Source: Escherichia coli
GTDB lineage: Bacteria > Pseudomonadota > Gammaproteobacteria > Enterobacterales > Enterobacteriaceae
Strand: one strand, 5' to 3'
DNA length: 64,000 nucleotides
Assembly (NCBI RefSeq): GCF_016026235.1
Contig: NZ_CP065613.1
Shown here: piece after piece, positions 3,951 to 57,101 of the stretch
How positions within the stretch are numbered: position 1 is the first letter of the stretch
How the letters are laid out: each line of letters begins with the position of its first letter
Made by a program: the position numbers and the translations under genes
The notes under the pieces: generated by a model
Databases searched by the model: none
Told to the model about the DNA's origin: nothing
What the model saw: the letters and a program-made list of their open reading frames with translations, nothing else

Positions 3951-4505
3951 TTATTTTAAAGAAAGTAATTGTTCCACAGTCATATTTTTAATTGCGCCCC
4001 GGTTAACAAGAGTCCATCCCTGTTTTTCCAGATAAAACCGGAAAGTCTCCAGGGTACAGACCAGTGCGCCATCAGGAACGGTTTCGGTGAATTCGACATT
4101 GCCGAATTTGTCGAAGTGAACAACCAGAGTGCGACCATCACCCGGAATCATCTTGTCAGCAGGTGGGGTGTTATTCTGGCGCAGTTCGGCCTCCATGCGG
4201 TCGAACTCAGCAATGTAGGCTTCCTTGAATGCGGCGGCTTTTTTGCCAGTGAAGCCCATCATCAGGAAAACGAAGCCGTTTTTGGTGATTTGGTACATTG
4301 GGCGTTTTTCGCCTTTGGCGTCGGTATAGGTGACGGGCTTAAAATTAAGCCGGTTAAACTCCGGCGAGCATTCGAGAGTTTCGATCTTCTGAATAACGTT
4401 TTTGTGCATTTTCCGGAAGAACTTCGCAACCGCAACAGACGTAGTGACAGCGCGACCATTTTCGATGGTTACGTCAGGGTGAGAAAGGGTAAGGATAGTA
4501 GCCAT
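3951..4505 (-). CDS. rha: Rha-family phage regulatory protein (antirepressor-like)
   Basis: MATILTLSHPDVTIENGRAVTTSVAVAKFFRKMHKNVIQKIE...YQITKNGFVFLMMGFTGKKAAAFKEAYIAEFDRME matches the Phage_pRha pattern from memory. I place the start at ATG 4505 (SD GAGG at 4514-4517) rather than track start 4799, because the upstream 98 codons overlap a terminator and a structured RNA. Confidence 0.75.
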   Translation of the reverse strand: MATILTLSHPDVTIENGRAVTTSVAVAKFFRKMHKNVIQKIETLECSPEFNRLNFKPVTYTDAKGEKRPMYQITKNGFVFLMMGFTGKKAAAFKEAYIAEFDRMEAELRQNNTPPADKMIPGDGRTLVVHFDKFGNVEFTETVPDGALVCTLETFRFYLEKQGWTLVNRGAIKNMTVEQLLSLK

Positions 4506-4559
4506 GATGGCAGCCTCGATAGTCAGTTTAAATAACTCACCACCAGAGGTAGCAATCTC

Positions 4560-4640
4560 ATGGGTGGTGAGACGCACAGGGTTGCTACAACCGGTGACTA
4601 CCGAAACCGGCCAGCCTTGCGGCTGCCCTGCACGCCCCAC
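4560..4640 (-). ncRNA. candidate C4-type (P1/P7 c4-like) antisense RNA upstream of rha; ends approximate
   Basis: On the minus strand, GUAGCAA (4582-4588) and CUCACCACC (4563-4571) are complementary, in the same 5'-3' order, to UUGCUAC (4549-4555) and GGUGGUGAG (4536-4544). The targets lie just upstream of the rha SD/ATG. The region is GC-rich and hairpin-rich and is preceded by a terminator. No covariance model was run. Confidence 0.4.
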
Positions 4641-4670
4641 CATAATCTGAATGTGGCTGTGCTTGACGCA

Positions 4671-4694
4671 TAAAAAAACCGCCTGAGCGCGGTT
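4671..4694 (-). terminator. intrinsic terminator (minus strand)
   Basis: Minus strand reads AACCGC-GCTCAG-GCGGTT followed by TTTTTTA. Confidence 0.5.
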
Positions 4695-4821
4695 ATGCGC
4701 AGTAGTCATCGTCGGGGTAGCAATCCCGGCCCCCGTTTTATGAGGTGCAGGTGCACTATAATTCCACCCGTTCTGGTTTTCAATAGCTACATTCAACATT
4801 TTCTCTCACCTTTCATCACCG

Positions 4822-10464: not shown

Positions 10465-10691
10465 TTTTATGGGGCACCTTTCTGATTGATTTCATATTGG
10501 CGAGGTAAGTAGAATGACTGCGGGTGCTTGAGGCTATCTGCTTCAGGCATGAACACCAAAAGGCAGATAGAGAAAAGCCCCAGTTAACATTACGCGTCCG
10601 GCAAGACGCTTAACATTAATCTGAGGCCAATTTCATGCTTTGCACATGTAGGTTAGCCTCTTACATGCCGAAAGGCAAGGAGAAGCAGGCT

Positions 10692-10847
10692 ATGAAGCAG
10701 CAAAAGGCGATGTTAATCGCCCTGATCGTCATCTGTTTAACCGTCATAGTGACGGCACTGGTAACGAGGAAAGACCTCTGTGAGGTACGAATCCGAACCG
10801 GCCAGACGGAGGTCGCTGTCTTCGTAGACTACGAATCCAGGAAGTAA
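10692..10847 (+). CDS. hok: Hok/Gef-family type I membrane toxin (in-frame upstream extension from 10635 corresponds to Mok)
   Basis: MKQQKAMLIALIVICLTVIVTALVTRKDLCEVRIRTGQTEVAVFVDYESRK (51 aa). The 70-aa track ORF mirrors MokC/HokC organisation. I did not map the Sok antisense RNA. Confidence 0.85.
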   Translation: MKQQKAMLIALIVICLTVIVTALVTRKDLCEVRIRTGQTEVAVFVDYESRK

Positions 10848-13052: not shown

Positions 13053-13129
13053 GGCCCTTTAGCTCAGTTGGTCAGAGCGAGCGACTCATAATCGCCAGGT
13101 CGCTGGTTCAAGTCCAGCAAGGGCCACCA
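13053..13129 (+). tRNA. ileZ: tRNA with CAU anticodon, ileX/ileZ-like (tRNA-Ile2, lysidine-dependent, AUA) rather than Met
   Basis: 77 nt. Acceptor GGCCCTT/AAGGGCC, anticodon loop CTCATAA, T-loop GGTTCAAGTCC, encoded CCA. The body resembles E. coli ileX from memory. Confidence 0.85.
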
Positions 13130-13130
13130 A

Positions 13131-13207
13131 CCACCACTAGCTCATCCGGATAGAGCATCAACCTTCTAAGTTGACGGTGCGAGGTTCGAGTCCTCGGTGG
13201 TGGGCCA
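13131..13207 (+). tRNA. argN: tRNA-Arg (UCU; AGA/AGG)
   Basis: 77 nt. Acceptor CCACCAC/GTGGTGG, D-arm GCTC/GAGC, anticodon stem TCAAC/GTTGA with loop CTTCTAA, T-arm CGAGG-TTCGAGT-CCTCG, then G-CCA. Confidence 0.9.
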
Positions 13208-13209
13208 GC

Positions 13210-13285
<76 letters not shown>

Positions 13286-13288
13286 TAT

Positions 13289-13363
<75 letters not shown>

Positions 13364-48660: not shown

Positions 48661-48864
48661 ATGTAGGTCGCATTCGGCACTTATTGTCGGATGCGATGCT
48701 TGCGCATCTTATCCGACCTACGAATCGCATCGAATCTGTAGGCCAGATAAGGCATTTACGCAGCATCCGGCACTTATTGTCGGATGCGATGCTGGCGCAT
48801 CTTATCCGACCTACAAATCGCATCGAACCGTAGGCCGGATAAGGTGTTTACGCCGCATCCGGCA
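48661..48864. repeat. REP/BIME cluster (at least four REP units in alternating orientation; ~94-bp tandem duplication)
   Basis: Units of the form TCGGATGCGATGCT.GCGCATCTTATCCGACCTAC and inverse GTAGGCC.GATAAGG...GCATCCGGCA. The 60-nt block at 48674-48733 recurs at 48768-48827 with 2 mismatches. Confidence 0.9.
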
Positions 48865-51563: not shown

Positions 51564-51615
51564 CGCAAAGTCTCCGCAATTACTCGCAAGGGAGCGAGTA
51601 TTGGTTTATTTTCTC

Positions 51616-51642
51616 CAACAAAAAAGGAGCCGAAGCTCCTTT
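51616..51642 (-). terminator. intrinsic terminator between orf207 and xis
   Basis: Minus strand: AGGAGC-ttcg-GCTCCT followed by TTTTTGTT. Confidence 0.6.
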
Positions 51643-51647
51643 GATGA

Positions 51648-52271
51648 TTAAAATTCGAATTGTCTCGCCCGAAGGCTTTTCAGCATTGGTTTTGCCCGTT
51701 CGAAAAGGGCGCTTGCTTGGTCAAGTCGTGTCGCCTCCCTTAGCAGTACATCTCTGTTTTTCGTCACCGTGTAAAAAGTTTCAAACGCGATGTCATACAG
51801 CTTGCTCGTGTATGATGAGTTCAGTTCCTTCAATATCGGGTACAGACGTTTGCAGATGTCCTGCGCATTCTCCATCTGTACCTGCATATAGCAAAGGAGG
51901 ATGATTTCTTCGTCTGTGAATTGCTGCGCTGGTTGCATGCTGCGAAGTTTCTTTTCGCACTCGATGAAGTATCGGCGTATCTGGCGGCCTTTTTCGTTAC
52001 GCTCGACCATCGCCGTTTCTTTGGCTGTATCGAGGGTGAGGTGATAGTCTTTGCTACGGCGATCGCCTCCACGTCCTTTGATCCCCCTGTTTTGGTGAAC
52101 CAAAATGTAATCGACATCAACGGCAAAGCCGTATTCTGTTATGCGATTTTTAATCCATGTAGAGAAGTCACGACGTACTTCCAAAAATTCGTGTAAATCA
52201 CGGGCATTAACGAGAAGAGTTGTTTCGTTGGATATAGTGCCGTTGAATACGGGGATGAGTTGACTGGTCAT
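51648..52271 (-). CDS. AntA/AntB-type antirepressor-like protein
   Basis: 207 aa. The N-terminus IPVFNGTISNETTLLVNARDLHEFLEVRRDFSTWIKNRITEYGFAVDVDY resembles the AntA domain. Confidence 0.6.
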   Translation of the reverse strand: MTSQLIPVFNGTISNETTLLVNARDLHEFLEVRRDFSTWIKNRITEYGFAVDVDYILVHQNRGIKGRGGDRRSKDYHLTLDTAKETAMVERNEKGRQIRRYFIECEKKLRSMQPAQQFTDEEIILLCYMQVQMENAQDICKRLYPILKELNSSYTSKLYDIAFETFYTVTKNRDVLLREATRLDQASALFERAKPMLKSLRARQFEF

Positions 52272-52592
52272 TTTTATGTCCTTTGCATTTGTTCAGATAG
52301 CCCTGTGTTCAGCAGGGCGGTCAGGTACTTGAACACCGTGCAAAGTCGGCCCGTATCCTTAACCTTTCGGCTGTTTTTCGGTATACGCGCTACCCGACCA
52401 TATCTGAAAAATGGACATAAAAAATCCGCATGACTGACGGGTGCGGTTTCCGCTTTGCAAGGTGTGTTCAGCACCATGAAGCGGAATATAGCCCCGTTAA
52501 TGCGGTGTTGTCAAATCATGTAGGCCTTATCTTGCTGTAAGCCGCGCCATTCGGGCTTTTCCCCACATTTGGGGAAAACTATCTTGTCAAAA

Positions 52593-53375
52593 TCATGCAG
52601 CCTTTCGCCCTCCTTCGATGAGTTCCTCTATTTTGTGCACTCCAGCCTCGTTGTACCGAAATGTTTCAACCTGCTTGTCATTGTGCGCCGATTTGTCGAT
52701 GAACCACTTCCCGTACTTTTCTGTTTTGAGCATGTAGGTGTTGGCTATGCGTCCTACCTTGTTGGCTGAAATACCGTAGCGCTGGCCGACTTCCGTAGCA
52801 GAGTAGTAGTGCTCTGAGATAGCTGGCAGAGGTACAACATCGCGACCAACAATCGGGTTGAACACTCCAGCTACTGCTGCCTGCTTTGATTCTGAGGACA
52901 GATTCGGGAACATATTCACCAGTCGATCCGCCACGTTCAAAGCTATTTCCATGGTTCGCGCACGGTCTAGGCTACTTTCTGGTTGCGGTACTGGTTGAGG
53001 ATGGTTGGCAACCTTTTCGCGCTGATTGAAGTAGCCGTCCTCCAGTTTTTCGAACACGTCCCATGCCTGATCCGTTTCGAGCATCTTCGCGTGACGGGCG
53101 GCTCCGCGCTCTGTCCAGAGGATGAGGTGGCGTGCATTTGGGGCAATTTTCACAAAGTAGTTTAAAGCTACTTTGTGTTTTAGCGCGCGCAGCTCGTCAC
53201 CAACGACCTTGTAGAAGTGTACCCCCTCAACAAAGCGCGACTTGTTTTCATGATGGTTTTGCCGGATGCGCACAACATCCGTTCCGTACAACTGCGCCAA
53301 TAGTTCGCTGGTGATGACGTTGGTTTGTTTGTAGGTGATTGGTGAAAGTGTTTCAACAGAAATTTGAGCATTCAT
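52593..53375 (-). CDS. ORF6N/KilA-N-like DNA-binding domain protein (antirepressor-like)
   Basis: 260 aa. The N-terminus ITYKQTNVITSELLAQLYGTDVVRIRQNHHENKSRFVEGVHFYKV resembles the ORF6N domain. Confidence 0.55.
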   Translation of the reverse strand: MNAQISVETLSPITYKQTNVITSELLAQLYGTDVVRIRQNHHENKSRFVEGVHFYKVVGDELRALKHKVALNYFVKIAPNARHLILWTERGAARHAKMLETDQAWDVFEKLEDGYFNQREKVANHPQPVPQPESSLDRARTMEIALNVADRLVNMFPNLSSESKQAAVAGVFNPIVGRDVVPLPAISEHYYSATEVGQRYGISANKVGRIANTYMLKTEKYGKWFIDKSAHNDKQVETFRYNEAGVHKIEELIEGGRKAA

Positions 53376-53440
53376 AGCGTCCTCACATTGGCTTTTGCAT
53401 TGAAGAAAGCTTGACGGTGAACTCGCCGTAACGAGTTCAG

Positions 53441-53470
53441 ATAAAAGAAATCCCCGCGAGTGCGAGGATT
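53441..53470 (-). terminator. intrinsic terminator after the DUF551 gene
   Basis: Minus strand: AATCCTCGC-actc-GCGGGGATT (one mismatch) followed by TCTTTTAT. Confidence 0.5.
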
Positions 53471-53499
53471 GTTATTTACCTTTGACGGCAAGTTGCAGG

Positions 53500-56863: not shown

Positions 56864-56996
56864 TTTTGGGAACTCCTGGCTGATTAAGTACGTCGATGAG
56901 TCGTTTCCATCCGTCACGTAATTTACGGGTGATTCGTTCAAGTAAAGATTCGGAAGGGCAGCCAGCAACAGGCCACCCTGCAATGGCATATTGCAT
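56856..56996 (-). CDS. cIII: CIII (FtsH inhibitor)
   Basis: Not in the track (46 aa). ATG 56996 follows [54 protein letters not shown] matches lambda CIII, with a shorter C-terminus. Confidence 0.85.
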   Translation of the reverse strand: MQYAIAGWPVAGCPSESLLERITRKLRDGWKRLIDVLNQPGVPKNG

Positions 56997-57101
56997 GGTG
57001 TGCTCCTTATTTACGCTTTAAATTGCTCCGTGTATTCACTCGTTGGAATGAATACACAGTGCAGTGTTTATTCTGTTGTTTATGCCAAAAATAAAGACCA
57101 A

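Follow-up and report, generated by a model that had tools for sequence, protein, structure and literature searches.

What lies between two adjacent antirepressor-like genes of a lambdoid prophage, and why does it carry repeated motifs? The question is raised by a 64,000-nt stretch of Escherichia coli DNA (contig NZ_CP065613.1 of assembly GCF_016026235.1; hereafter the window), where a lambdoid prophage adjoining ybhC has the minus-strand gene order gam, bet, exo, Ead/Ea22-like, DUF551, orf260, orf207, xis, int. In the original prediction, orf207 and orf260 were described as separate units parted by a non-coding tract of about 320 bp, with the repeats as their control sites. The gap (52272-52592, 321 bp) has indeed no protein gene, but it holds an RNA gene that had been overlooked, sRNA-Xcc1 (Rfam RF02221), together with a promoter and a terminator-like hairpin, on the minus strand. 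By analogy with the phages P1 and P7, we consider it likely that this tract is a self-contained c4-type antisense-RNA control cassette for the antirepressor gene orf207, in which the RNA is sRNA-Xcc1 instead of C4. Its parts are given below (UTR, untranslated region; SD, Shine-Dalgarno sequence).

52557-52578, no strand assigned: palindromic hairpin, perfect over 9 bp, directly past the orf260 stop, with no U-tail on the minus strand
52485-52514, minus strand, towards orf207: sigma-70-type promoter TTGACA-18-TATATT, 11/12 match
52419-52478, minus strand: predicted short leader RNA (hairpin, a1, b1, terminator-like hairpin), putative functional counterpart of IsrK / c4-a1b1
52475-52461, minus strand: leader hairpin GGUG[CUGAACA]CACC, with a1 = UGAACAC (52470-52464); contains the 11-mer at 52463-52473
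52459-52453, minus strand: leader box b1, UGCAAAG
52446-52426, minus strand: leader terminator-like hairpin CCGCA..UGCGG, then U6 (52424-52419)
52311-52399, minus strand: sRNA-Xcc1 RNA (RF02221), 89 nt, with closing stem 52399-52391 / 52327-52319, hairpin 1, hairpin 2 (52350-52335) and tail GCCC
52279-52318, minus strand: target region in the orf207 5' UTR (a2 hairpin, extra CUGAACA at 52296-52290, b2, SD)
52318-52300, minus strand: 5' UTR hairpin GCCCUG[CUGAACA]CAGGGC, a2; contains the 11-mer at 52304-52314
52287-52281, minus strand: box b2, UGCAAAG, overlapping the SD AAGGA (52283-52279), 10 nt before the ATG at 52271
51648-52271, minus strand: orf207, antirepressor with AntA and P22_AR_C domains, ATG at 52271, the gene that the cassette is proposed to control

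The RNA gene and its flanking boxes

The covariance model of sRNA-Xcc1 matches the tract over its full length (model positions 1-87/87), scoring 68.3 bits where the gathering score is 53 (E 2.8e-11 to 1.6e-12). In the RNA, the segment 5'-CUUUGCA-CG-GUGUUCA-3' comprises b', which is the loop of hairpin 2 (52345-52339), and a', which is the 3' junction (52336-52330). The 11-mer TGTGTTCAGCA has exact copies only at 52304-52314 and 52463-52473 in the whole 64 kb, and these are the loop-plus-stem of two hairpins on either side of the RNA gene. TGTTCAG (52290-52296) and the inverted TTGAACA (52329-52335), the latter corresponding to a', were also found where the original prediction had placed them. 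With a repeat finder, the complementarity is 7/7 between b' and b2 and 7/7 between a' and a1 (an inverted-repeat match of 52330-52336 to 52464-52470, 7 nt, 100%), while a'b' and b1a1 are complementary over 13 nt at 92% and a' and a2 over 12 nt at 83%. The duplex between the RNA and the leader reaches -23.8 kcal/mol, compared with -11.9 +/- 2.9 for shuffled targets. By a rough estimate, an exact 11-mer direct repeat would arise by chance in 321 bp with a probability of about 0.01; the comparative data below are a stronger argument that the repeat is real.

The promoter (52514-52485), the RNA (52399-52311) and the orf207 ATG (52271) are all on the minus strand, and the RNA and orf207 are probably co-transcribed from this promoter. 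It is the only 11/12 site in 4 kb and lies 86 nt upstream of the RNA, so placed that transcription would start at about 52478-52477. The same GGGGCTATATT -10 region is present in the IsrK-type module of another locus, L074. The transcript is predicted to terminate, in part, at the leader hairpin (52426-52446), whose loop is conserved across loci (CCCGUCAGU / CCCGAUAGC) even with a wholly different stem sequence, which suggests a role beyond termination.

Two further pairings were observed around these elements. An 8-bp complementarity (52479-52486 with 52448-52455; UUCCGCUU / AAGCGGAA) encloses a1 and b1, and an equivalent CCGC...GCGG pairing was found in other variants, the 'GCGG' past b1 being nearly universal. 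Since its 5' arm falls between the -10 hexamer and the predicted start, this arm should not be in the leader. A long-range helix joins 52423-52401 to 52299-52271 (14 nt at 93% plus 11 nt at 91%) and also appears in the minimum free energy (MFE) fold (z -3.4); as modelled, it would hide the SD and AUG of orf207 in unprocessed read-through RNA. This helix is present in the subgroup with a GGAC-type SD (L077, L176, L001 with G-U pairs) and not in the GGAGG subgroup. A tract 100% identical to that of the window occurs in E. coli FDAARGOS_943 (L204, NZ_CP065615.1 2037251-2039141) before an ant gene interrupted by IS600, and its RefSeq annotation has no RNA feature.

Co-variation of the RNA loop with its flanks

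From the orf207-homologue set, 79 loci (L numbers) were fetched and Rfam models were run on 20 representatives. In 15 of these 20, RF02221 ends about 40 nt before the start codon, and L074 and L075 have a canonical IsrK + C4 pair in the same position before their orf207 homologues. No RNA match above the gathering score was obtained in L007, L056 and L067 among the 20 representatives. The last two were parsed as the same RNA type as L053, which scores exactly at gathering, and the L007 group has the L053 sequence directly upstream of the start codon.

The RNAs of this set have 14 distinct hairpin-2 loops. Both b1 and b2 match the loop in 13 of the 14 variants, being identical to each other in 12 of those 13, and the 14th variant has a weaker b2. 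The closest relative of the window, L011, differs from it by a coordinated swap at all three sites: loop, b1 and b2 read CUUUGCA/UGCAAAG/UGCAAAG in the window and CUUUCGA/UCGAAAG/UCGAAAG in L011.

A wider sample of at least 120 further loci was collected with a pattern made from the conserved hairpin-1 core, and the counts given for it, here and in later sections, are among the matches listed. These loci belong to Xanthomonadales, Neisseria, Pasteurellaceae, Enterobacterales, Azospirillum, Desulfovibrionaceae, Chitinophagaceae, Holophaga and others. The RNAs were parsed by an anchor and closing-stem search, replacing an MFE-based parsing that was inconsistent (66 failures). An alignment of 60 RNAs with MAFFT and RNAalifold misaligned the closing stem and recovered 3 pairs only, and the Rfam model with anchored parsing was used instead.

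Co-variation was tested on 95 cassettes with distinct loops, drawn from diverse phyla, taking the longest complementary run of the loop alone against cognate and non-cognate flanks, with 10,000 permutations. On the upstream side (leader), the cognate run is of at least 7 nt in 85/95 cassettes, compared with 7% for non-cognate pairs (z 23.8); on the downstream side (SD region) this holds for 50/95 compared with 3% (z 17.1), with 0/10,000 permutations reaching the observed value on either side. A crude duplex-energy matrix with the entire hairpin 2 had given a weak downstream signal, because the conserved stems and the shared a' raise the non-cognate scores, and it was superseded by the loop-only runs.

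The layout around the RNA is also conserved. An ORF (open reading frame) preceded by an SD starts 43 to 59 nt (median 48) past the closing stem in 185/195 parsed RNAs, and among the relatives the b2 matches of at least 7 nt end 6 to 13 nt before the start codon, with a mode of 9 nt. Upstream of the RNA, a run of at least five T is found within 90 nt in 130/145 cassettes, and a TTGACA-like hexamer at 100 to 175 nt in 121/145. A CC-rich tail follows the closing stem, with C at the third tail position in 125/145. The genes downstream of the Xcc1 cassettes are mostly of antirepressor type: the 106 non-redundant ORFs include P22_AR_C (17), AntA (14), Phage_pRha (11), Bro-N (8), ORF6N (5), P22_AR_N (3) and KilA-N (3) domains, as well as SymE toxin (4), the remainder being a few helix-turn-helix proteins and many small proteins without a Pfam match.

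These results bear on how the repeats act. The control sites of the original prediction could be read as DNA operators for a repressor, or for the KilA-N-like domains of both gene products, at moron-type promoters. The upstream 11-mer does span about +5 to +15 relative to the predicted promoter, where an operator could lie, and ORF6N and AntA are putative DNA-binding domains by their Pfam descriptions. However, the second 11-mer is 160 bp past the promoter, within the 5' UTR, and the boxes are direct repeats rather than palindromes, so that we regard protein operators as highly improbable. The repeats are indeed control sites, but as target boxes at the RNA level, since they are part of the transcript, with two of the three copies of CUGAACA in hairpin loops, since the RNA encoded between them is complementary to them, and since in relatives the equivalent boxes co-vary with this RNA.

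Similarity to c4-type control

The immI region of P1 and P7 has the order c4 antisense RNA - icd - ant, and its motifs are represented in Rfam by C4 (RF01695) and c4-a1b1/IsrK (RF01394), as defined by Weinberg et al. (PMC2864571). There, c4 blocks antirepressor synthesis via pairing around the ribosome-binding site (RBS), and this is the basis of P1/P7 heteroimmunity (reviewed in PMC12197685). The tract resembles this system in several respects. Its RNA gene has the orientation of the antirepressor gene and is part of the leader of that gene, and the RNA has a three-way junction of a closing stem and two hairpins, followed by a CC-rich 3' tail. Boxes complementary to the hairpin-2 loop b' and to the adjacent junction a' occur both upstream (a1b1) and at the RBS (a2b2), and in both systems the specificity varies by phage.

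The likeness was checked on the canonical modules of L001, L074, L075 and the window's other prophage. In the first three, the loop of C4 hairpin 2 has two pairing partners, one box within the IsrK linker and another on the SD of the gene downstream; the junction 3' of C4 hairpin 2 pairs with an IsrK hairpin loop and with a box directly past C4. The C4 modules and the tract have thus a common layout, with a1 in a hairpin loop, b1 in the linker before a terminator, the RNA, an a2 hairpin and b2 on the SD. It is this placement and pairing logic, shared with canonical IsrK + C4 pairs that precede orf207 homologues, that leads us to read the cassette as control of the P1/P7 c4 type. Some differences are also clear. 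The closing stem is of 9 bp in the tract RNA and 17 bp in C4, and in the tract RNA the internal loop of hairpin 1 (AAUACAA) is large and conserved. The proposed target is here the RBS of ant itself, whereas in P1/P7 it is an upstream icd-like ORF, and a2 is duplicated here, with one copy in a hairpin loop and another beside b2.

Antirepressor genes are under RNA control in other phages too. In Gifsy-1, the isrK promoter gives a short terminated IsrK and a translationally silent read-through isrK-orf45-anrP mRNA, the short IsrK activates the read-through mRNA in trans, and the interval from isrK to anrP gives STnc1160, an RNA that is processed and stable (PMC4825925). The order of promoter, short terminated small RNA, read-through into a processed stable RNA and antirepressor gene is predicted to be the same in the tract, where the read-through mRNA would likewise be translationally silent, and in both the short RNA has sequences complementary to the downstream RNA. 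In Gifsy-1, a 45-codon ORF that overlaps the RNA must be translated, and translational coupling is needed too; no conserved upstream ORF running across the RNA, comparable to orf45, was seen across the Xcc1 cassettes. Activation by the short RNA, demonstrated in Gifsy-1, is here a presumption. In the P22 immI region (sar - ant), a small RNA also blocks antirepressor translation, but sar is a true cis-antisense RNA, read from the other strand over the ant RBS, whereas the tract RNA shares the strand of its target and acts, as proposed, through short boxes.

Proposed mechanism

From these similarities, we suggest that transcription from the strong promoter at 52514-52485 would first give a short leader, with a1 in a hairpin loop and b1, ending at a weak terminator. 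Read-through transcripts would run on across the 89-nt RNA into orf207, and the RNA would be excised from this precursor and accumulate. C4 is excised from its precursor by RNase P, and the acceptor-like closing stem of the tract RNA followed by the CC-rich tail is suggestive of excision here too. Next, b' (CUUUGCA) and a' (GUGUUCA) would pair with b2 and a2 in the orf207 5' UTR. Because b2 overlaps the SD, translation of orf207 would be blocked, the antirepressor would stay silent and the lysogen stable. The leader has the same boxes and could therefore bind the RNA, either as a decoy that titrates it in trans, as for IsrK, or by coupling the RNA level to leader termination, as in P4. The hypervariable b' loop would give a private specificity to each phage.

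Several observations weigh against this reading. The two-site duplex between the RNA and the 5' UTR (-15.3 kcal/mol) is not significant alone, being equalled by 15% of the shuffles, and the case for b2 depends therefore on the comparative data. The leader terminator is weak, with a 5-bp stem and an 11-nt loop. The C4 (RF01695) and isrK (RF01394) models have no match on the 341-nt tract at E <= 10 with permissive filters, although they do match the window at 4560-4748 and the loci L001, L074 and L075; as Rfam also assigns sRNA-Xcc1 to no clan, the cassette would be analogous to C4 in function, or related to it very distantly, without being a member. For sRNA-Xcc1 homologues, trans targets have been proposed, by prediction only (PMC2996969, PMC12189769), and what we suggest for the mechanism of the sRNA-Xcc1 family is drawn by analogy. 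Finally, about half of the wider cassettes have a1/b1 and lack b2 at the SD. These b2-less cassettes include L081, L088, many Xanthomonadales loci and those upstream of symE. Translational block is therefore not the sole output of the family, and an output of termination type probably exists too.

The last point agrees with what is known of the P4 CI RNA and the N15 CA RNA (seqA-seqB-seqC), processed RNAs that pair with boxes flanking their own gene in one untranslated leader, where the upstream box adjoins a terminator, as it does here. In P4 the output is that transcription terminates prematurely, while the downstream box of the tract overlaps the SD. By this alternative, the RNA would mainly pair with the nascent a1/b1, alter termination in the leader and so set how much transcript reaches orf207, the translation block being secondary. 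The position of a1/b1 directly 5' of a terminator-like hairpin argues for it, as do the rank of the RNA-leader duplex as the strongest interaction and the cassettes with upstream boxes only. P4 CI RNA works in this manner, and IsrK was related by its authors to P4 seqA and CI RNA and termed a structural homologue of P4 seqA (PMC4825925). Against it, b2 is exactly on the SD in the window and in 13/14 of the E. coli-phage variants, which would be needless for termination control. We consider control mainly by termination possible, though tentative, and the two modes are not exclusive.

sRNA-Xcc1 in the literature and in phage 933W

The sRNA-Xcc1 of Xanthomonas campestris is an 88-nt species known from Northern blot and end mapping (PMC2996969). 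By the covariance model, the window RNA belongs to this family, and its size (about 88-89 nt) matches. The Xanthomonas RNA was described differently, as trans-acting and virulence-linked, in an integron cassette upstream of symE (PMC12444791), and the Xanthomonad copies have a1/b1 without an evident b2. In APSE phages, sRNA-Xcc1 precedes an ORF6N gene (PMC7313666). Tandem copies with predicted trans targets were reported in Xylella, and in the strain Temecula1 there are five of them with a spacing of about 381 bp (PMC12189769). We also observed tandem arrays of leader plus Xcc1 in L089 (Haemophilus influenzae).

A copy named 'sRNA-Xcc1' in E. coli EDL933 has 40,293 RNA-seq reads, with a ribosome coverage of 0.02, and an abundance similar to that of CsrB or RNase P RNA (PMC5331693). 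In phage 933W, we found RF02221 (69.1 bits) directly upstream of the Ant gene, with matching b1 and b2 boxes (CAAAUAAG); the int-exo region of 933W has no ant gene. The RNA-seq copy is probably this one, since its coordinate fits an older numbering and the right end of 933W. Position 1392052 of NZ_CP008957 was also considered for it and rejected, as a hok gene is there. The 'microRNA-size' RNA 24B_1 of phi24B, said to repress an ant gene, was discarded as a form of this element because it maps to the lom region. In a literature search of incomplete coverage, which is not proof of novelty, we found no link between sRNA-Xcc1 and c4-type control, no mention of a/b boxes and no published function for the EDL933/933W RNA.

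The published work raises another explanation, that the RNA is a trans-acting (Hfq-type) regulator of host or plant mRNAs whose adjacency to orf207 is incidental. The target predictions, together with an HrpG/HrpX-dependent expression (PMC2996969, PMC12189769), and the high abundance in EDL933 (PMC5331693) are in line with this. Against it, the SD-preceded ORF begins at the fixed distance of 43-59 nt in nearly all parsed RNAs, and the sole hypervariable part of the RNA tracks its own flanks, while a conserved host target would need a conserved seed. We find this explanation quite unlikely.

The two antirepressor-like genes

The assignment of orf207 as AntA-like and of orf260 as ORF6N/KilA-N-like was borne out by the domain searches. 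In orf207, AntA covers residues 21-92 (E 2e-26, 92.8 bits against a Pfam cut-off of 27) and P22_AR_C residues 115-178 (E 1.2e-9, 38.6 bits against 22.4), and the protein is a full-length match to the PHROG family phrog_377, anti-repressor Ant (E 4e-90). In orf260, ORF6N covers residues 12-98 (E 7.4e-20, 71.5 bits against a cut-off of 27.8), and the full-length match is to phrog_1726, anti-repressor (E 4e-91). The domain search of the C-terminal halves, which had been advised, was informative for orf207 alone, as sequence searches of that half of orf260 gave no Pfam, NCBIfam or PDB relative. Neither protein has a match in NCBIfam, and PDB sequence searches gave nothing meaningful for either, leaving orf207 without a solved relative by sequence. 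An homology of orf260 to ORF29 of P13374, a gene guarded by IsrK + C4, was considered and rejected, ORF29 being Rha-like. The gene and the terminator-like sites around the two units are:

53439-53470, minus strand: terminator-like hairpin with T-rich tail between the DUF551 gene and orf260, stem 53470..53449, 9 pairs, tail TCTTTTATCT
52593-53375, minus strand: orf260, antirepressor-like, N-terminal ORF6N
51613-51642, minus strand: terminator-like hairpin with T-run closing the orf207 unit, before xis, stem 51642..51623, 8 pairs, tail TTTGTTGGAG

Both terminators of the original prediction are therefore present as minus-strand hairpins with T-rich tails. Terminator-like sites number 9 in the 4 kb, compared with 4.5 expected, so this pattern is by itself weak evidence. 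The claim of separate units with their own control is true for orf207, which has the promoter at 52514-52485 and the terminator at 51642-51623, and fails for orf260, which has no recognisable promoter or RNA module of its own. Upstream of orf260, only a terminator was found, with no promoter-like site and no Rfam match, and on its 3' side there is no canonical minus-strand terminator after the stop. The palindrome segment at 52557-52578 recurs in many lambdoid/Stx phages (tract query positions 9-91). We suggest that orf260 is probably expressed from antiterminated pL transcripts. Its 5' UTR (53376-53448, minus strand) contains AUCUGAAC ... AAUGCAAAAG, with an imperfect likeness to a2/b2 of orf207 (CUGAACA ... 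UGCAAAG), about 20 nt upstream of the orf260 SD, and these sequences could be a relic or a weak second target.

The original prediction, in which BstA-like proteins were counted among those with KilA-N/ORF6N and Ant domains, had also raised a possible role of this kind in abortive infection or exclusion. More generally, the cassette could be a toxin-antitoxin (BstA-like, or type I/III-like) or abortive-infection module, where the ant-like protein would be a toxic effector and the RNA its antitoxin. Some members of the family do precede SymE toxin genes, and the tandem RNA arrays of Xylella and Haemophilus are suggestive of such a system. On the other hand, the PADLOC defence models gave no match for orf207 and only weak PDC-S05 matches for orf260 (E 8e-7), covering its ORF6N domain, and they lend no support to the BstA-like role. 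The full-length match of orf207 to phage Ant families and the pairing at the RBS, which indicates a plain translational repressor, also argue against a toxic effector, and we judge such a module unlikely.

The other prophage of the window

Another prophage in the window has a canonical pair of RNAs before a Rha-like gene:

4748-4672, minus strand: IsrK, 57.6 bits
4647-4560, minus strand: C4, 75.7 bits

The true start of the Rha-like gene is at about 4504 and its end at about 3951, the listed 282-aa ORF (3951-4799) being over-extended through the RNAs. Its pairing sequences (a' GUAGCAA, b' UCGGUAGUC) are unlike the ones in the Xcc1 cassette. The window would thus have two antirepressor genes guarded by RNAs with different keys, and cross-regulation between the prophages at the RNA level is not expected, given the difference in pairing sequences. 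The other Rfam matches in the window (10522-10697, 13053-13360, 48741-48811 and 56951-57009) are a sok antitoxin RNA, a cluster of four tRNA genes, naRNA4 (REP-derived) and the lambda cIII thermoregulator.

Implications for the sRNA-Xcc1 family

Through antirepressors, lambdoid prophages, Shiga-toxin phages among them, pass from lysogeny into lytic growth independently of the SOS response. An RNA that gates antirepressors would therefore help to decide prophage stability and toxin release, and 933W bears the same cassette before its ant gene. If our reading is correct, sRNA-Xcc1 would gain a testable function as a c4-type guard, the reports assigning trans targets to it in plant pathogens would have to be re-interpreted, and the natural loop/box pairs would be a ready set of orthogonal translational repressors. 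The reach past this window is moderate and consists in assigning a mechanism to a widespread Rfam family. In its widest form, on which our confidence is evenly balanced, the sRNA-Xcc1 family would be a second, widespread lineage of c4-type 'immunity RNAs', loop-keyed guards of antirepressors (AntA/Rha/Bro/KilA-N/ORF6N) and SymE toxins. Their leader would be an anti-antisense decoy, the three RNA elements would jointly set the threshold for antirepressor-driven prophage induction, and the loops would define private RNA immunity groups among co-resident prophages.

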